Notes under the pieces: model-generated
What the model was told of the DNA's origin: nothing
Database searches by the model: none
Seen by the model: the letters and a program-made list of their open reading frames with translations, nothing else
NCBI GenBank assembly: GCA_964644965.1
Contig: CAZXYN010000001.1
Span: forward strand, 139,012-203,011
Reading direction: 5' to 3'
DNA length: 64,000 nucleotides
From: an uncultured Candidatus Saccharibacteria bacterium
GTDB lineage: Bacteria > Patescibacteriota > Saccharimonadia > Saccharimonadales > JACDBH01
Made by a program: the position numbers and the translations under genes
Part shown: positions 27,288 to 35,164 of the stretch, piece by piece
How the letters are laid out: each line of letters starts with the position of its first letter
Numbering within the stretch: the first letter of the stretch is position 1

Positions 27288-29222
27288 TTACAGATTCGCT
27301 AGATCTAAGGCTGTATTTATATACTCAGCGTGACTCCAAACCAGCGGTGATACGCTTACCTGAGCAGAGGTCTCTGGTTCTACCTGTTCGCTCATGATGC
27401 CGCTCTCTAGAGTCTTTTGACTAGCCCAGTCCATAATGCCATGAGCCTTGGCATCATCTCCTTTGTCGTGATAATACTGAGCTAGCCAGAATGAACAAAT
27501 AAACCAAGGATTGCCGGTAAAGTCATCTCGTTTGCGCATATACCAGTCATTCTCGTAGCGTGGCGAGCCGCCAGACGGCGATTTATCGAGCAATAGCTGC
27601 TCTATCTGCGTGACGGTTGCGTCGACGTTCGCGGCTGCTGTTTTGGGTCCAAACATCATCATGCCGTAGAAGCTTGACAGATCGAGTGTATCGTCGTTCT
27701 GAAGCGAACCATCTTGCTGCAGCAAGAAGCCTTTGCGATAAGCCTGACGTTCTTCACTAAATAGCGGACTGATAGCATCACCAATACGCTTCGCGGCAGC
27801 TCGCCAGTAGACCGCGTCCTCTGGATAACCAAAATCTTCTGCAAACTGACCAGCAACTTGTAAGGCCGCAAGAGTTGTAGCAACAGTGTAGGAACTAGTT
27901 AGGAACTTTTCCTCCCACAAATCATAGCTAGCATGCGGTAGATTGGTAGCTTCGTCTATAAAATTGGCCATAAACTGGCCAGCTGGCTTAATAAATGTGC
28001 CGTAAAGCGAATCGACAAAGTCTTTGTCATCAGTTGCTTTGAGGTATTCACCGAGCATTATAACCACAATAGCGGTTTCGTCTTCTTGTATGGCAAGCTC
28101 ATGGCGATTGTCTTTGTGCACTAGTGGGTGCCAAGTACTACCGATAGCTCTATCTGGTTGATACTTGTGCATTAGATAGCCATCCTCGTGGATGATATCG
28201 CGGCAGAATTCAAAGAAATTTCGAGCTTCTTCGCGAAAGCCAAGTCGTATTAGCGGCCAGACAGCATAGGCGCCGTCTCTAGGCCAGCAATAACAATAGT
28301 AATCTCTTCCGTAATTGAAAATACTGGAGTCACCAGAGGCTAGAATACTGCCACGACGATCGGTGTGAGCTTTGACAACAAGTAGGGATTTTTTGGTCAG
28401 CAGCCGGTAACGGTCTTCTATCTGGCGGAGTTTTGACTCAGCTGGCGACATCCATTCATGCCACCAGCGACGAGTATCACGCAATCGAGTGACTAGACCG
28501 GTCTTCCTAAGCTCTTCATGAGTTGCCTCAGCATCTAGCTGTGAGTTTGCGGCTACAATCCAGTAATCAATTACCTTGGCTTGGGCTGAGCCGAGCTCCA
28601 TAGTTAGGCGTATCGTCGAATCGACGCCACCATGCTCCACAGCGTTTCCGGATAGTTCACCGTCTTCTGCATCACGAAAGGTGCCGTCTTTGCCTTCGAT
28701 ACCGTAATTTCCGACTGCATATTGATCAAACGAGTTACCGTCGCTAGTTTCAGCATAGACAAGCAAACTACAACGACCCTTGTAGTCAAGAATATAGTTT
28801 CCTTCTGGATCATACAGGGCAGTGTCAGCTCGTCCTTGATTAGAAATTTCAAACACTTGGTGCATAAATACTCGAACTTCACGGGCGTGTTCGGCTCTGT
28901 TAATCACCTTAATCCGGCGACAAAAGGCATTTACGAATGGATCGACAAAATCCTGAAACTGTAACTCTACGCCAAGTTCTTTGTGCTTCATTGTAATGCT
29001 GCTTATAAGCGCTGAGTCTTCGAAATCAACACTCATTTTCCATGTTTCGTCATTCACCCATGAAAATTGATTATCAACCCAGACACCAATTTTGTGTCGC
29101 TCACTACGAGTAGTAGTCAGGTTATTTAGACCAACGTATGGGTAATAAAAATCATGAACCAGGCCGTGTTTATTGAGACCCACAAATAATTGCCCATTAC
29201 TTAGCACGACTGGACGACCCAA
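27288..29222 (-). CDS. Glycoside hydrolase family 15 (glucoamylase/glucodextranase-like)
   Basis: 644 aa; (alpha/alpha)6 catalytic-domain signatures CWPRDGAY and SYDLWEE (general-acid region). Confidence 0.65.
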   Translation of the reverse strand: MGRPVVLSNGQLFVGLNKHGLVHDFYYPYVGLNNLTTTRSERHKIGVWVDNQFSWVNDETWKMSVDFEDSALISSITMKHKELGVELQFQDFVDPFVNAFCRRIKVINRAEHAREVRVFMHQVFEISNQGRADTALYDPEGNYILDYKGRCSLLVYAETSDGNSFDQYAVGNYGIEGKDGTFRDAEDGELSGNAVEHGGVDSTIRLTMELGSAQAKVIDYWIVAANSQLDAEATHEELRKTGLVTRLRDTRRWWHEWMSPAESKLRQIEDRYRLLTKKSLLVVKAHTDRRGSILASGDSSIFNYGRDYYCYCWPRDGAYAVWPLIRLGFREEARNFFEFCRDIIHEDGYLMHKYQPDRAIGSTWHPLVHKDNRHELAIQEDETAIVVIMLGEYLKATDDKDFVDSLYGTFIKPAGQFMANFIDEATNLPHASYDLWEEKFLTSSYTVATTLAALQVAGQFAEDFGYPEDAVYWRAAAKRIGDAISPLFSEERQAYRKGFLLQQDGSLQNDDTLDLSSFYGMMMFGPKTAAANVDATVTQIEQLLLDKSPSGGSPRYENDWYMRKRDDFTGNPWFICSFWLAQYYHDKGDDAKAHGIMDWASQKTLESGIMSEQVEPETSAQVSVSPLVWSHAEYINTALDLANL

Positions 29223-29225
29223 AGC

Positions 29226-30437
29226 TTAAACCTCTAGACCCTTCTGTAGCAAACGATGCCGAACATCGTGCCAGGCATTCATGAAATTGATAAACGCTTC
29301 GTATGGCGACTCATACGGGCTGAAATAGGCATGAACATCACCATCACTAAACCATTTGGTGCACATGTAGTAGAAGTGATCAGAGGTTGTTAGCTTGCGC
29401 CAATCGGCAATCAAATTATCATCACCGCTATCAAGCACCTTAGCTTCTAGACTATACAGCGCCTCTGCTGCCTGGTGTTGCATGTTGTTACCAAGCCAGG
29501 CCGTCAGGTCACGCTCGTTGTCAGCCCAGGTTACCGTCTGCGGCATATCAACTTGATCGACCGGCTCAAATGTATCAGCTGCTTCACTAACTGTCATGAA
29601 GCTGTGATCATGTTGTTTGAGCCATTCGTCAGGCAAGTGTCGCAAGAATTCAAAAATTCCGGTGTCTTCCCATTGGTGCTCGCCAAAAGTCTCGTAGTCC
29701 ATAAATAGGTTAAAGTTAGTTGCATCACCAGTCTCTGACAACCAATGGGCAAAAGTGCTGGCAGTAAGTGGCGTATCGCTACGAGCCGTTTCACTAAACC
29801 TAAAGGCAATGTCATCACTCAGACGATAGTTCTTTAGCAGCAGCTTGATGTTGTCGGTATAAGTCGGTCGATATAGATAATTTGGCGAACGCCAGCCAAG
29901 AACTGGATCCCAACCTTCGGCCAGGATTGCCTTATAGCCAGCCTTGTCGGCCCAATAGGCCAGGTCGTTGTTGTAGGCAAGCTCGGTATTACGAAATACG
30001 CTTGGTGTTTGACCAAACACTTGTTCTATTTTTTGACGGTGCATATCGACTTGGTGCTCAAACTCGCTGCGTGAATAGAAAAATGCCAGACTATGATGAT
30101 ATGTTTCTGCAACTATTTCTACTCGACCAGTGTTTGTGAGTGCTTTGAAGCTTTCGAGCACATCTGGTGCCCATTTTTCGAACTGCTCGATAACCGTACC
30201 AGTGATAGACAGGCTTAGTTTAAATTCTGGATGTTTTTCTAGCAGTTCGAGCAAGATTTTGTTGGTTGGCAGGTATGATTTGTCGGCAACTTTTCTAATG
30301 ACTCGTTCGTTTGATTCGCGCTCATCATAGCCGGCATCAAAATAATCACTTTTGTTAGCTACGTCGAACACTGTATAATGACGTACCCGATAAGGCTGGT
30401 GAACGTGCAGATAAAGTACGATAGCCTTCTTGCTCAT
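29226..30437 (-). CDS. Glycoside hydrolase family 57 (alpha-glucan-active)
   Basis: N-terminal LHVHQPYR signature of GH57; 403 aa. Confidence 0.6.
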   Translation of the reverse strand: MSKKAIVLYLHVHQPYRVRHYTVFDVANKSDYFDAGYDERESNERVIRKVADKSYLPTNKILLELLEKHPEFKLSLSITGTVIEQFEKWAPDVLESFKALTNTGRVEIVAETYHHSLAFFYSRSEFEHQVDMHRQKIEQVFGQTPSVFRNTELAYNNDLAYWADKAGYKAILAEGWDPVLGWRSPNYLYRPTYTDNIKLLLKNYRLSDDIAFRFSETARSDTPLTASTFAHWLSETGDATNFNLFMDYETFGEHQWEDTGIFEFLRHLPDEWLKQHDHSFMTVSEAADTFEPVDQVDMPQTVTWADNERDLTAWLGNNMQHQAAEALYSLEAKVLDSGDDNLIADWRKLTTSDHFYYMCTKWFSDGDVHAYFSPYESPYEAFINFMNAWHDVRHRLLQKGLEV

Positions 30438-31654
30438 ACTGCCGCCTCTGCCAAACTATGGTGTTCATACCATGTCATTAGTCTATCGGCCGCTGGATGC
30501 CAGGAAAGTTCATTGTACTCTTGCAGGGCGTTTGCGTGAAGCTCATCTCGCAAGCCATCGTTCTGGACAACAGCAACGATTTGGTTGGCCATTTCGTTGA
30601 TATCCCAGAAATCAACCTTGAGACAATTATGGAACATCTCAACCACACCCGACTGCTTTGATACAAGTGATGGCGTGCCGTAACCAGCTGCCTCTAGTGG
30701 TGTCAGCCCAAATGGTTCAGAGACCGAAGGCATCACAAACAAATCACCAATGGCAAAGCTATCACGCCAATTCTTGCCACGTTGGAAGCCAGTAAACATA
30801 ACATTTTGACTAATTCCAAGCTCTGCCGCAAGCTCGATAAGCTCGTGGTATTGCTCGCCAGAACCAACGATCAAAAACAATGTCTTTGGCTCACGGTCAA
30901 TCACCGCCTTGGCGGCCTGTAACAGATTAGGCAAGCCTTTTTGGATGGTAAGTCGGCCAATATTTACGACTACACGGTAACCCTGATTCCTCATACTCTG
31001 CAGATAGCTATGAACATTGGCGTCATCCAGAGACTCCACCATGTCCAAATCAAGACTATTGTGGACTACATCAATTTTGTCCCTAGGAATTCCATATTCA
31101 CGTACAATAGCTTCGCGGGTAAAATCGCTAACTGCAATGACCCTGTCAGCCATCATGAAACTCATACTTTCTATCTCTCGAACTAGCGGATTTCCACCGC
31201 CAGGCTGACCAGAACGATCTGATTCTATAGAGTGAACATGCAAAATTAATGGTTTTCCAGACATTTGGCGCGCCCGAAGTCCTGCACGAAAGGTAAGCCA
31301 ATCATGGGCATGAATCACGTCAAAGTCTACATATGTCGTTAACTGACCGACTGATTTTTCGTAGGCTGATTGCTGGTCATAGATATTAATCCATTCTTCG
31401 CTACCATCTTCGTAGATATACTTGTGACTATCATAGGCAATACCACTTTTTTGGACAGCCTGTACGCCCCGTGGATGGGCAGCATGAATATTCATGAAAT
31501 CAATATCGTGATCAGCCGTATACGGCAGTACGAACTCGATACCAACACCTTTTTTTGAGAGAGCTTTACAGAGCTGATAACAGGCCACACCTAAGCCACC
31601 ACTGTTGTGAGGTGGGAGCTCCCACCCAAGCATCAATACCTTCATCGCCCTCAA
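30434..31654 (-). CDS. Retaining glycosyltransferase (glycogen-synthase-like GT4/GT5)
   Basis: MKVLMLGWELPPHNSGGLGVACYQL N-terminal KxGGL-like motif; C-terminal GT-B EX7E region; ATGA overlap with the GH57 gene. Confidence 0.55.
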   Translation of the reverse strand: MRAMKVLMLGWELPPHNSGGLGVACYQLCKALSKKGVGIEFVLPYTADHDIDFMNIHAAHPRGVQAVQKSGIAYDSHKYIYEDGSEEWINIYDQQSAYEKSVGQLTTYVDFDVIHAHDWLTFRAGLRARQMSGKPLILHVHSIESDRSGQPGGGNPLVREIESMSFMMADRVIAVSDFTREAIVREYGIPRDKIDVVHNSLDLDMVESLDDANVHSYLQSMRNQGYRVVVNIGRLTIQKGLPNLLQAAKAVIDREPKTLFLIVGSGEQYHELIELAAELGISQNVMFTGFQRGKNWRDSFAIGDLFVMPSVSEPFGLTPLEAAGYGTPSLVSKQSGVVEMFHNCLKVDFWDINEMANQIVAVVQNDGLRDELHANALQEYNELSWHPAADRLMTWYEHHSLAEAAV

Positions 31655-31759: not shown

Positions 31760-33262
31760 CTACAAATCTTTTACCGATCCAAAGGCTACTCTATCAAGGA
31801 TTTCGCCGCTCATATCCATCATCGAAGCAGGGGTGACGACGAATTCTCCATAGCGATTGTTAACAGCATCAACAGCGTCGCTGATACGCCTCTCGGCCCC
31901 AAAAGTGCGTAAGTTTTCTGTAGGCTCAGTATTTGTTTCAAAAAAGTTAAGCTGTTCGGGGCGAGCTGGTTGCAAATCATAAACAGTGATACTCATACCT
32001 CTAACTTTGGCTATAATCTCAGCCTTCTCTAGCAGTACCATTGCCGCCTTATAAATACTCTCCGTCGAATACAAGCGATAGCCAACCTTCTGACCCTGAT
32101 GCCAGGCGCGCTGACTGGCTAGATTTTCGCCACCAATAAAGCCATTATCTTTCATTGGTATTTCTTGATAGTTTAGAAAGCTCAAGTACAAATGTATGCC
32201 GCCGGCCGTTAATTCGCCGCGCCGCACGCGCCGGCCAACTTTTTCGCACAGTTTCATCAGTAGCCGTGCAAGCTCATGTTTGTCATCTGTTTTACTGGGC
32301 AGGGCATACTGATGACCAATAGTGCGCTGTTTTGACTGATAATCATCTATTTCGTAACCCCGAAGGCGCAAATACCAGTAGTAGCCACCGATACTCTGGA
32401 AGACGACTTTTTCGAGCACGCGGCGCTCTGCTTGCAAAAAATCAAGTGGCGTCATGATGCCATACATCTGAAGACGACGCTTAAAACGGACATTGATGCC
32501 AGGCAAATCCATAAGATCCATACCCCCGCACACCCCGCACCGCCCAGATAAGTTTTTGGCAAAGCCAAAACCCTTGCTGGGCTCTTGGCTATTTTTGGCT
32601 TGTCCGCTCCGGTCCGCAGTCGCTGTATCTGTATACACCTCCTTTGCGGTTCTCGCTGACGCACCAAAACTAGCACAAGTGCTAGGTGTGCGGCACGCAT
32701 AGTACGCTTCTAAGTTAGTGTGATTTATTAGCGTCATGCCGTCTGGTTTATCGAATCCAGCGGCATATTTTGCCAGAAAGCGATTCGGGCCAATGCCGAT
32801 ATTAACCGTCACCGCCTCGCCGAGTCGTTCGGCTACTTTTTGCTTGATTTCCAACCCGATTTCGGTCATCGAAGCACCAGAACGTAAGATGGGTGAACCG
32901 GCAAGATTTAGTACAAACTCGTCGATGCTTTTGGGCGATACGTCACTGGTGTACTCCAACATCAACTCTTTGAACCTGCGATGCGCCTCACGGTATTTGG
33001 CCGGATCCGGGGTCATGATAACAATGCCTGGGCATAGACGACGAGCTTCGGCCACGTTGACACCAAGCTTCACGCCCATCCGCTTTGCGTCATAACTAGC
33101 CGCCAGCACGAAACCGTGAGGCGTATCATAAGCCGCAACGCCCACCGGTCGGTTGCGAAGCAATCTGTTGGCCTGTTGTTCGATGATCGAGAAGCATGAG
33201 TTCAAATCAATATGCATGATCCGCGCCGACGCCTTATTGAGAGGCAGCTCGACCGAACTCAT
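31760..33262 (-). CDS. Y-family DNA polymerase (UmuC/UvrX-like) carrying a ~65 aa in-frame insertion
   Basis: MHIDLNSCFSIIEQQANRLL...VGVAAYDTPHGFVLAASYDAKRMGVKLG palm; HhH region LPGINVRFKRRLQMYGI; 500 aa versus ~400 typical. Confidence 0.8.
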   Translation of the reverse strand: MSSVELPLNKASARIMHIDLNSCFSIIEQQANRLLRNRPVGVAAYDTPHGFVLAASYDAKRMGVKLGVNVAEARRLCPGIVIMTPDPAKYREAHRRFKELMLEYTSDVSPKSIDEFVLNLAGSPILRSGASMTEIGLEIKQKVAERLGEAVTVNIGIGPNRFLAKYAAGFDKPDGMTLINHTNLEAYYACRTPSTCASFGASARTAKEVYTDTATADRSGQAKNSQEPSKGFGFAKNLSGRCGVCGGMDLMDLPGINVRFKRRLQMYGIMTPLDFLQAERRVLEKVVFQSIGGYYWYLRLRGYEIDDYQSKQRTIGHQYALPSKTDDKHELARLLMKLCEKVGRRVRRGELTAGGIHLYLSFLNYQEIPMKDNGFIGGENLASQRAWHQGQKVGYRLYSTESIYKAAMVLLEKAEIIAKVRGMSITVYDLQPARPEQLNFFETNTEPTENLRTFGAERRISDAVDAVNNRYGEFVVTPASMMDMSGEILDRVAFGSVKDL

Positions 33263-33432
33263 AGCGGCCTGAGGGTAGACCGGGCTCGAGAAACAACTTC
33301 ATTCAACCTCAACATGGGACTTGATTGCCTAGATTGCTCCTGTGACAGCCGCTGAGCAGCCAACTCCAGGCGCATTGATTCCAATATTTTTCTAACCTCT
33401 TCTCTTTGGTGTCGTTTCTTTCGGTTTTTCAT
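33259..33432 (-). CDS. Small basic protein (57 aa) translationally coupled to the polymerase gene
   Basis: Hand translation MKNRKKRHQREEVRKILESMRLELAAQRLSQEQSRQSSPMLRLNEVVSRARSTLRPL*; its TGA overlaps the polymerase ATG (ATGA). Confidence 0.35.
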   Translation of the reverse strand: MKNRKKRHQREEVRKILESMRLELAAQRLSQEQSRQSSPMLRLNEVVSRARSTLRPL

Positions 33433-33515
33433 ATTGTTCCTTTCCTTTTAGATAATTTGCTTATCTCTATGGGGTCTTACTAGATTTAACGTACTGAAGT
33501 GATTTTTGTTACAGA

Positions 33516-33848
33516 TTACCGGGCACGATGACCATAGGTTACTGCTGCATCGTGAGCCGACATGTATTCCTCCAAAACCCAATTGAATGTGTCTGTATTG
33601 AACGCCAGCTTAAAGTACGCACCACCGTCCTTATCAGCAATCGAAAAATGATGAATTTGGTATTTTCCATCCCAAGTTTTGTGCCAGAAATCTATTTTGC
33701 CTAAGTAATAGTCCTGGTTGTTCCAGGTCAGCATGTAGGGCTGATGTGAGCGGGTACGGGCGTTGTAATACCACACCACACTGACGGGTTCGTTGAGTGA
33801 CTCACGCATGGTAACCTCCGTGGCAATTTGTCGTTTTCCATTTATCAT
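33516..33848 (-). CDS. Small protein, paralog A (possible YolD-like accessory factor)
   Basis: 110 aa; shares P..LTWN..DY.LG...FW......G....HH with paralog B. Confidence 0.5.
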   Translation of the reverse strand: MINGKRQIATEVTMRESLNEPVSVVWYYNARTRSHQPYMLTWNNQDYYLGKIDFWHKTWDGKYQIHHFSIADKDGGAYFKLAFNTDTFNWVLEEYMSAHDAAVTYGHRAR

Positions 33849-33944
33849 TTGCGCAATTGTTTTCCAATTGCCATTGGCTATTTCTGGTAAATCGGCTAAT
33901 GGTAATTATTTCGTAAAATGAAAACTGGTAATTTGGTAAACGCT

Positions 33945-34286
33945 TCATACAGTTACTCCCACAAATGTTTGCATGGAGTTTGTTTGGTCGGTTGCAAAGG
34001 TAGCTTTTTCGAGCTGCCAGGTTAGATTCTCTGTCTCCAGGGACAATTCAAAGGTATAGTCGCCGCTTTCGTCACCGACACGGTAGTGATGCACCAGGAC
34101 ATCGCCACGATGTTCGGCATACCAGAATTGCACGCCGCCGAGTGTGTAATCTTCATCGTTCCAAGTCAGGCGGACTGGGCGAGCATATTGATCACGACCG
34201 TTAAAACTAAATAATACATCGACTGTTTTTTTATCGTTTTTGTTTAGGGCAGAAGAGAGGCTATTACGCATATCACAATACTCCAC
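33945..34286 (-). CDS. Small protein, paralog B (tandem duplicate of 33516-33848)
   Basis: 113 aa; RPVRLTWNDEDYTLGGVQFWYAEHRGDVLVHHY aligns with YMLTWNNQDYYLGKIDFWHKTWDGKYQIHHF of paralog A. Confidence 0.5.
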   Translation of the reverse strand: MEYCDMRNSLSSALNKNDKKTVDVLFSFNGRDQYARPVRLTWNDEDYTLGGVQFWYAEHRGDVLVHHYRVGDESGDYTFELSLETENLTWQLEKATFATDQTNSMQTFVGVTV

Positions 34287-34378
34287 TTAGTAATTTATAA
34301 GAGGTAGTAGCTTAACGAACACGCTACTAGACGTATGTATTGTGGTAGGCATTCGCTAGACAGCGAACGGCTACATTT

Positions 34379-35164
34379 ATGCGTAAAGCCCGAGCGGAGG
34401 AATTTCGAGGTCAATCAAAAAGCCCACACGTGACTAAGCATAAGTATACACCCGCCGCAGCAAGTCTCGTCAAGCATGTTTTTGCGGTACAATACAATCA
34501 GATGAAACTGAGGCTAGCGAGCAAAAAACAGGAACTGGGCGATGTGTGGTCTTTCTTTTTCGACCCAGAGCAACCCGTGACATGGCAAGCAGGGCAATCG
34601 ATTCGAATAGAACTCCCTCGCAAGACCTGGGGTATCAGCGAACGGCGATTTACCATTGCCTCAGCCCCTTGTGAAAAACATATTCAGATCACCACCAAAT
34701 TAAGTAGTAGCGAGTTCAAGCAAACCCTGGCCAAGCTTAAGCCCAACTCTATAATTGAAGGTCATAACATAGAAGGCGATTTTATCTGGGACAAGTCACG
34801 GCGTCCTAAGCTGTTCCTAGCAGGCGGTGTTGGTATTACACCGCTGCGGGCACTGCTCGCGCAGGCCATCCACGACAAAATTCCACTTAATATCACTCTG
34901 CTCTATAGCACTAAAGATAGCCCGCCTTTATTCAATCAGGAGTTGGAAATGTGGGCCAAGAAACACCGGGGTTTCCATTTGTACATAACCGACAAACGCA
35001 TCGCTATCGACCCGGGGTCAACATTGGTGCCCCTGTGGAAAGACAGTGTTATCTATATAGCGGGACCAGAGAAGATGGTACGACAATTATCGGATGAGCT
35101 TATCAGGGGTGGGCTATCAAAATCACAGCTCAAAACCGATGAATTCACTGGCAATGTTTTATAG
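34379..35164 (+). CDS. Ferredoxin-reductase-type FAD/NAD(P)-binding oxidoreductase
   Basis: RRFTIASAP (RxYS FAD motif) and LFLAGGVGITPL (NAD-binding GGxGxxP); the true start may be M at 34501. Confidence 0.5.
   Translation: MRKARAEEFRGQSKSPHVTKHKYTPAAASLVKHVFAVQYNQMKLRLASKKQELGDVWSFFFDPEQPVTWQAGQSIRIELPRKTWGISERRFTIASAPCEKHIQITTKLSSSEFKQTLAKLKPNSIIEGHNIEGDFIWDKSRRPKLFLAGGVGITPLRALLAQAIHDKIPLNITLLYSTKDSPPLFNQELEMWAKKHRGFHLYITDKRIAIDPGSTLVPLWKDSVIYIAGPEKMVRQLSDELIRGGLSKSQLKTDEFTGNVL

Follow-up and report, generated by a model that had tools for sequence, protein, structure and literature searches.

The stretch of DNA analysed here, called the window, covers 64 kb of an uncultured Candidatus Saccharibacteria bacterium, and all positions are given in its numbering. 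On the minus strand, the span 31760-34286 holds four genes in the order paralog B, paralog A, a micro-open reading frame (micro-ORF) of 57 amino acids (aa) and a Y-family polymerase, as the initial annotation had described. With a probability of roughly 0.7, this cassette is a Saccharibacteria translesion operon that combines an active Y-family polymerase with duplicated ImuB-C-like partners and a micro-protein, and that is preceded by a structured leader RNA. ImuB-C is a small beta-barrel at the C-terminus of ImuB that also occurs in other phyla as a standalone protein beside Y-family polymerases and DnaE2. In the cassette the known PolY-[standalone ImuB-C] module takes a form specific to Saccharibacteria, and three features of the cassette are not previously described in the literature searched: the diverged duplication of ImuB-C, a micro-protein that is near-exclusive to loci with paralog B, and a leader that sequesters the Shine-Dalgarno (SD) sequence and the start codon in place of a LexA box.

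The two paralogs, their family and the micro-protein

Paralog B (33945..34271, minus strand, 108 aa) and paralog A (33516..33809, minus strand, 97 aa) were delimited from the list of open reading frames (ORFs) and the starts of their homologues, the former as the derived ImuB-C-like duplicate and the latter as the ancestral type. The ORF of paralog B runs from 33945 to 34286, and the GTG at 34286 from which the initial annotation had started the gene sits within the ribosome-binding site AAGTGGAG; since homologues begin MRNSL, the start is the ATG at 34271, which yields this same N-terminus and a protein identical to the database protein P0057. Within the ORF of paralog A (33516..33848) the start is the ATG at 33809, with GGAGG ahead of it and the N-terminus MRESL, and the product is identical to P0001. 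The two proteins align with 34% identity over 95 residues at E=5e-20, so that the paralogy initially proposed for them lies far beyond chance, and the motif P..LTWN..DY.LG...FW......G....HH on which that proposal drew is common to both. Searches recovered 56 homologues of paralog A and 99 of paralog B, each of the latter at least 57% identical and Saccharibacteria-like. An alignment of both paralog families (29 sequences), which also served as a profile and is referred to as A1, has an invariant W77, along with P24, W29, L36, H53, F66 and L68, and the local hidden Markov model (HMM) built from it scores paralog B at 148.8 bits. A hydrophobic tail, [FL]VG[AV]xx-COOH, is conserved at the C-terminus of B-type proteins, including the one in the window (FVGVTV, 33945-33980), and is lacking in A-type proteins; it may serve as a short motif for docking or degradation.

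The AlphaFold2 model of paralog A is a six-stranded all-beta structure with a predicted local distance difference test score (pLDDT) of 86.3 and a predicted template modelling score (pTM) of 0.75, its strands being predicted at residues 3-16, 21-29, 32-47, 50-59, 64-71 and 76-84. When this model was compared with the PDB by Foldseek, no match was found at E<=0.001, the top-ranked TM-scores being at most 0.3 with a large root-mean-square deviation; a structure search of BFVD returned nothing meaningful, and sequence searches of the PDB with profiles gave chance hits only. This lack of a PDB relative agrees with a 2026 survey in which ImuB-C is described as a novel beta-barrel (PMC12926913). Searches of Pfam (E<=1), NCBIfam and PHROGs matched neither paralog A nor paralog B nor the micro-ORF.

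The family of the paralogs was identified through their more distant relatives. A HMMER search with A1 of 1.84 billion protein representatives gave 434 cluster representatives at E<=1e-3, and the matches outside the Saccharibacteria clade are mostly proteins of 82-89 aa at E-values of 1e-17 to 1e-7, with P0266 at 1.8e-8. This wider family shares the pattern M.E.INE.VSV..F....P....W.g..Y.i..vg.HH....G....H.FSV....F.L.lnT..L.W.LEE, and A1 scores locally at 5e-13 to 6e-16 against the proteins of three of its loci (L041, L043 and L044). PF20114 (DUF6504) is matched by 44 of 125 wider-family members at E<=1, with a best value of 8.8e-7, and no other family recurs; P0266 scores 23.8 bits against DUF6504 over profile positions 18-100. 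Canonical imuA-imuB-dnaE2 operons were located on plasmids with E. coli DnaE as query, and DUF6504 is matched by the very C-terminus of three of their four ImuB proteins, with 30.7, 28.6 and 24.1 bits (cut-off 24.2). As the C-termini of ImuB match DUF6504, DUF6504 is the ImuB-C domain of Aravind and colleagues (PMC3765255). Aligned by hhalign to the same four proteobacterial ImuB C-termini, whose alignment is shallow (effective number of sequences, Neff, 1.9), the wide-family alignment A2 gave E=0.0018 over 51 columns in the expected register and A1 gave E=0.026.

The genomic surroundings of the wider family point the same way. In one context a SRAP gene is followed by an 89-aa gene that overlaps a Y-family polymerase, in a second an 82-aa gene follows LexA, and in a third an 88-aa gene overlaps a Y-family polymerase; these contexts match those published for ImuB-C (PMC3765255, PMC6511836). 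In L043 (4352-6601), the ImuB-C-like gene stands directly after lexA and ahead of a 394-aa protein that is not a polymerase; this protein carries a precomputed Pfam label of MJ0043_C, and our own Pfam scan of it was without match.

Several points weigh against the assignment. The paralogs themselves do not match PF20114 directly at E<=1; the hhalign probabilities against the ImuB C-termini are low, at 15% for A2 and 2% for A1; and the local HMM of the wide family fails to reach the canonical proteobacterial ImuB C-termini. Given these low probabilities and the miss of the local HMM, the homology link to ImuB itself is, at the level of sequence, a transitive one, which runs from the clade of the window to the 82-89-aa family, from there to DUF6504 and from DUF6504 to the ImuB C-terminus. 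A profile search of proteins with the broad alignment returned almost exclusively the Saccharibacteria clade and no fused ImuB, and tblastn with a typical 86-aa member of the wider family found no match in the plasmid collection. Hypothetical genes beside actinobacterial DnaE2-like genes (L037, L038) were considered as further candidates and are not DUF6504. The features of ImuB-C, an almost all-beta domain of ~80-100 aa with no solved relative and a conserved C-terminal tryptophan, are all found in the paralogs, W77 being the tryptophan. Taken together, A and B very probably belong to the ImuB-C superfamily, and they form a divergent Saccharibacteria-specific clade that lies beyond the direct reach of the Pfam DUF6504 model.

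The third gene, the micro-ORF (33259..33432, minus strand), encodes a basic, helical protein of 57 aa. Its 18 orthologues are 53-63 aa long, with 40-66% identity in the protein alignment (43-67% by tblastn), and share the N-terminal consensus MKNRKKRxQREEVRKILxAMRLELAAQRL, within which eight residues are invariant (M1, Q9, R10, E12, V13, R14, L17 and E23); a second short segment is also conserved. Because 18 orthologues share this consensus, the micro-ORF is judged to be a real gene and no chance ORF. The protein has no family match in Pfam, PHROG or PDB, and a single-sequence structure prediction places helices at residues 2-34 and 39-54 with a pLDDT of 84. In several relatives the micro-ORF and the polymerase are separated by a gap of 340-830 nucleotides (nt) that holds an ORF in antisense orientation, 98-230 aa long and without a Pfam family: L001 (5522-5975), L007 (5767-6103), L011 (3361-4191), L013 (4173-4620), L014 (5591-6244) and L027 (5584-6034). 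Homology is seen between the antisense ORFs of L001 and L027 (45%, tblastx), and the window is without such an insert.

Conserved gene order and an intact polymerase

A further 25 distinct loci were collected by context look-ups and by scanning species-representative genomes; every one comes from Saccharibacteria or from a metagenome-assembled genome classified no further than 'bacterium', and the window brings the set to 26. Typing by tblastn with the four window proteins identified the architecture B-A-micro-polymerase in 18 loci including the window, B-A-polymerase in one and A-polymerase in seven, so that the micro-protein accompanies paralog B in 18 of 19 loci and is missing from all seven that lack B. 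The copy in single-copy loci is of the A type, and this type is nearer to the wider 86-aa family; for these two reasons A is taken, from sequence comparison, as ancestral and B as a clade-specific duplicate that would have arisen within Saccharibacteria. In all 26 loci the polymerase lies downstream on the same strand, even though the flanking genes vary between loci, and the co-occurrence with a Y-family polymerase that the initial annotation had put forward for checking holds in these loci. Across the clade the stop codon of the small gene and the start codon of the polymerase often overlap, and in the window the stop of the micro-ORF and the polymerase ATG at 33262 do so as ATGA, the translational coupling noted initially. 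Because the polymerase follows in every locus despite different flanks, it is almost certain that the small proteins assist the Y-family polymerase, as accessory parts of a translesion cassette centred on it.

The polymerase (31760..33262, minus strand, 500 aa) matches PF00817 at 5.8e-30 and PF11799 at 1.1e-11, and NCBIfam models of Pol IV match it, but below their cut-offs. All 23 orthologues keep the motifs HIDLNSCF and SIDEF unchanged, and in the alignment the motifs fall on D6 and D101/E102 of UmuC; since these are catalytic residues of UmuC, the polymerase is predicted to be catalytically intact and should be active. Near its C-terminus a motif of the beta-clamp-binding type, QLNFF (residues 437-441; 31940..31954, minus strand), aligns with QLNLF of UmuC and QLSLF of UvrX and takes the form EQL[SN][LF][FL] in orthologues. 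It is followed by a RecA-NT-like motif, ERRISDAVDAVNNRYGEFVVTPA (residues 457-479; 31826..31894, minus strand), identified by alignment with UmuC and UvrX only, with ERRISDAxDxINNRYGEFVVTPA as its consensus in the multiple alignment; the RecA-NT motif was defined in PMC6511836. Both motifs are kept in the 23 orthologues, in which the C-terminal tail SMMDMxGEILDRxAFGxVRDL (residues 480-500; 31763..31825, minus strand) is near-invariant as well, and a BLASTP alignment with UvrX of SPbeta extends through the C-terminus. By analogy with the tails of UmuC and YqjW (PMC6511836), this tail is a candidate docking site for small subunits. The layout of clamp and RecA-NT motifs has been associated with multisubunit Y-family polymerases, for which PolY-[ImuB-C]-RecA variants were described by Timinskas and Venclovas (PMC6511836). 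A point against this view of the C-terminus is that it does not match Pfam DUF4113. The window polymerase also has an insertion of ~58 aa and low complexity at the palm/thumb junction (residues 189-246; 32525..32698, minus strand), at which tblastn alignments break at residue 188 and resume at 247. Most orthologues lack it and are 431-463 aa long, with the exception of L015 (520 aa). The insertion is rich in Ala, Ser, Thr and Gly and ends CGVCGG.

It is conceivable that the ImuB-C-like proteins are not subunits of the polymerase at all, and that they are damage-sensing or DNA-binding proteins that recruit repair, their link with the operon reflecting co-regulation; a lesion-recognising, repair-recruiting role was first proposed for ImuB-C by Aravind and colleagues (PMC3765255). 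In keeping with this, some members of the wider family have no adjacent polymerase, as in L043, where LexA and the 82-aa gene are followed by the unrelated 394-aa protein, and the published neighbours of ImuB-C include Ku/ligase, SplB and SRAP (PMC3765255). Nevertheless, two considerations make this role improbable here: first, the polymerase is adjacent in 26 of 26 clade loci, often with overlapping stop and start codons; second, in AlphaFold models ImuB-C forms part of the protein-protein interfaces with DnaE2 and ImuA (PMC12926913).

The upstream promoter-like element and leader RNA

Ahead of the first small gene, ~200 nt are conserved across loci whose upstream neighbours differ. At the distal end of this region lies an element (34443..34473, minus strand) composed of TTGACG (34473-34468), a 19-nt spacer and TATACT (34448-34443), and both hexamers are conserved in related loci; to judge by this sequence it would act as a promoter. 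It is missed by a generic sigma-70 scan, whose range of 16-18 nt does not include a spacer of 19 nt. Between this element and paralog B lies a structured 5' leader RNA of ~165 nt (34272..34436, minus strand), identified by covariation and by a covariance model. The model has exactly one match in each locus, in every case immediately ahead of the first ImuB-C-like gene, with 161 bits for the window and 21-37 bits for A-only loci. The initial annotation had suggested an SOS/LexA-type box for this region; none was found, and the structured leader stands there instead.

All elements of the leader are on the minus strand. At the 5' end, GUGGG pairs with CCUCC (34400-34396) around a variable hairpin. 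The hairpins P2 (34374-34345) and P3 (34329-34305, with the conserved loop GUGUUCGUUAA) both covary by RNAalifold, which also pairs the conserved CCUCC, as an anti-SD, with GGAG of the ribosome-binding site. Two further helices engage the start of paralog B: 34344-34338 pairs with the spacer between SD and AUG (34280-34274), and 34386-34378 pairs with the AUG and codons 2-3 (34272-34264), to which the leader sequence UUACGCA is complementary. In each of the 12 B-type leaders the stretch that follows P2 pairs with the SD-AUG spacer over 7-11 uninterrupted base pairs, and four covarying versions of this helix occur. In the leader alignment 93.8% of cells are paired and 14 of 21 pairs have compensatory double changes, and the covariation score is 0.36, as against 0.17 in shuffles (reached in 0 of 500) and 0.04-0.10 for slid partners; it counts against these figures that covariation was scored in part on a model-fitted alignment, so that they lean towards structure. 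The folding energy of the window leader is -58.1 kcal/mol (z=-4.5).

A cmscan of Rfam 15 over 34150-34750 on both strands at E<=10 gave three sub-threshold chance hits of 14-17.5 bits, as against gathering scores of 45-50. A pattern scan of metagenomes for the core of the leader returned 80 loci, all of them chance matches without a covariance-model match. Four loci whose B proteins begin MWEK... (L001, L007, L021 and L022) have a clearly different upstream region, with ~16-17 bits by the leader model; this subgroup may carry a second leader variant or be under different control.

Given that P3 and P2 are perfect inverted repeats, with arms of 7 bp and 6 bp, between the promoter-like element and the gene, and that the loop of P3 is highly conserved in sequence, the repeats could be read as DNA operators for a dimeric SOS-like repressor and not as parts of an RNA. 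However, this is unlikely, as the stems covary whereas the loops are constant, the opposite of what is expected of a sequence-specific operator; the G-U pairs of the leader occur in the sense orientation only; and the covarying long-range pairings involve the SD, the spacer and the AUG. In addition, the 64-kb window holds no second copy of the element or of its most conserved 17-mer, and LexA consensus boxes of the Cheo, E. coli, alpha and actinobacterial types are absent from 34260-34540. On the strength of the sense-orientation G-U pairs and the covariation of the stems, an RNA is favoured over a DNA operator as the nature of the upstream element, and it appears that no LexA box gates expression of the operon.

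Proposed mode of action and relation to known systems

For complex formation, for the roles of paralog B and the micro-protein and for the regulatory logic of the leader, we infer the following scheme. Paralogs A and B, possibly as a heterodimer and with the micro-protein, would be non-catalytic subunits of the polymerase that dock on its C-terminal tail, on RecA or on both, and the resulting complex of PolY-RecA-[ImuB-C] type, a functional analogue of UmuD'2C, would control or target lesion bypass. With the SD, the SD-AUG spacer, the start codon and the opening codons of paralog B all engaged in pairing by the leader, the default state of the operon should be one without translation, from which some trigger would release it. 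A bolder version, which we regard as tentative and rather unlikely, is that the cassette embodies an undescribed form of translesion control, in which a heteromeric module of two diverged ImuB-C barrels and a coiled-coil micro-protein would sit on the active polymerase and a leader RNA of a new class, riboswitch-like or protein-responsive, would sense a damage-related signal and turn on the operon after transcription, in place of LexA-type transcriptional control.

The closest known arrangement is the PolY-[standalone ImuB-C] module, in which, as here, a small all-beta gene of the ImuB-C type directly precedes an intact Y-family polymerase with clamp and RecA-NT-like motifs in an operon without imuA or dnaE2. 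The present cassette differs from it in that the ImuB-C gene is duplicated (34% identity) and a helical micro-protein is added; in that a structured 5' leader RNA lies ahead, with neither a LexA box nor a lexA gene present; and in that the clade, restricted to Saccharibacteria, is too divergent for a direct DUF6504 match. With the ImuA-ImuB-DnaE2 mutasome it shares the superfamily of the ImuB-C domain and a Y-family scaffold that carries clamp and RecA-NT motifs. In that system, however, the Y-family protein is catalytically dead and DnaE2 carries out synthesis, whereas here the active site is intact, ImuB-C is encoded separately, and neither imuA nor dnaE2 is found in the operon or among the immediate flanking genes. 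The leader resembles SD-sequestering leaders, such as riboswitches, RNA thermometers and ribosomal-protein leaders, in being a long conserved 5' untranslated region that occludes the SD and start codon and in a possible alternative pairing, that of the 5' GUGGG against the anti-SD CCUCC; unlike them, it is without an Rfam match. We know of no SD-sequestering leader for a translesion polymerase operon.

E. coli Pol V (UmuD'2C) and the Bacillus YqjX/YolD-YqjW/UvrX systems also have one or more small accessory genes followed by the polymerase, often translationally coupled, and their polymerases carry a C-terminal clamp motif, a RecA-NT-like motif and a conserved tail. From such systems came the initial suggestion that the paralogs are counterparts of YolD-like proteins (PF08863) or UmuD and form a mutagenesis cassette with the polymerase. 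The cassette itself is upheld, as a unit of accessory proteins and a polymerase that lies downstream in all loci, but the YolD/UmuD family is unsupported by sequence or fold. That the paralogs are nonetheless divergent proteins of this kind, with an SH3-like core and bound to the polymerase as in Pol V or in YqjX/YolD-YqjW/UvrX, fits their size and their position upstream of a Y-family polymerase, as well as the alignment of the polymerase C-terminus with that of UvrX, which is the YolD partner in SPbeta, across clamp motif, RecA-NT-like motif and tail. It is, however, very unlikely. The paralogs match neither the YolD family PF08863 nor Peptidase_S24 in Pfam, both of which are absent among the top families of the 125 relatives (E<=1), and PF00717, the S24 peptidase domain, matches neither paralog. 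Profile comparison by hhalign gave, for A1, E=0.55 with a single aligned column against SPbeta YolD and E=0.57 against E. coli UmuD, the protein that acts with UmuC. There is no PDB fold match at E<=0.001, and UmuD' is absent among the 50 Foldseek matches listed, whose entries were not checked for YolD-family identity. Unlike the accessory proteins of Pol V and the YolD systems, the paralogs show no S24 peptidase, SH3-like core, cleavage site or sequence or profile similarity to them, and the positive evidence favours a different family, DUF6504/ImuB-C. At the level of family membership the YolD/UmuD proposal is therefore largely refuted. That the small genes are unrelated passengers beside the polymerase, for instance a toxin-antitoxin pair or a phage remnant, is scarcely credible: they are small and without direct annotation, but their order is kept across 26 loci with different flanks, the three small proteins have no significant match in Pfam, NCBIfam or PHROGs (PADLOC was not searched), and the family with which the paralogs share homology recurs beside SOS genes.

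If the cassette is indeed a translesion operon with ImuB-C-like subunits, it bears on the least understood module of bacterial mutasomes, whose fold is unsolved and whose role is debated between binding of DnaE2/ImuA and sensing of damage. The clade would offer a compact natural system for the role of ImuB-C with a Y-family polymerase, having a duplicated and diverged barrel and a helical partner, and its barrel stands always beside a polymerase of the active type and never beside DnaE2 in these loci. It would also extend the ImuB-C module to the ultra-small genomes of the candidate phyla radiation, in which retention of a four-gene cassette suggests selection. If the leader RNA is functional, a mutagenic polymerase would here be controlled by RNA, and the leader is also a candidate new RNA family.

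The genes around the cassette bear no relation to it. Upstream are a NAD-binding oxidoreductase and a LysM transglycosylase, downstream are GH15, GH57 and GT4 enzymes, and a strong promoter-like site beyond the polymerase stop belongs to the downstream gene; given these unrelated flanks and the separate promoter-like site, the cassette is an independent four-gene unit. On the plus strand, a mechanically called ORF (34379..35164) runs, at 34379-34501, opposite the leader and promoter of the minus strand. The likely start of the NAD_binding_1 oxidoreductase is the Met at 34502 (MKLRLASKK...), so that the intergenic region would be ~230 nt and not 92 nt. Directly downstream of the polymerase, at 27288-31654 on the minus strand, lies a cluster resembling those of glycogen/starch metabolism, with a GT4/starch-synthase-like gene, GH57 and GH15, and an apparent promoter-like site of its own at 31710-31683.

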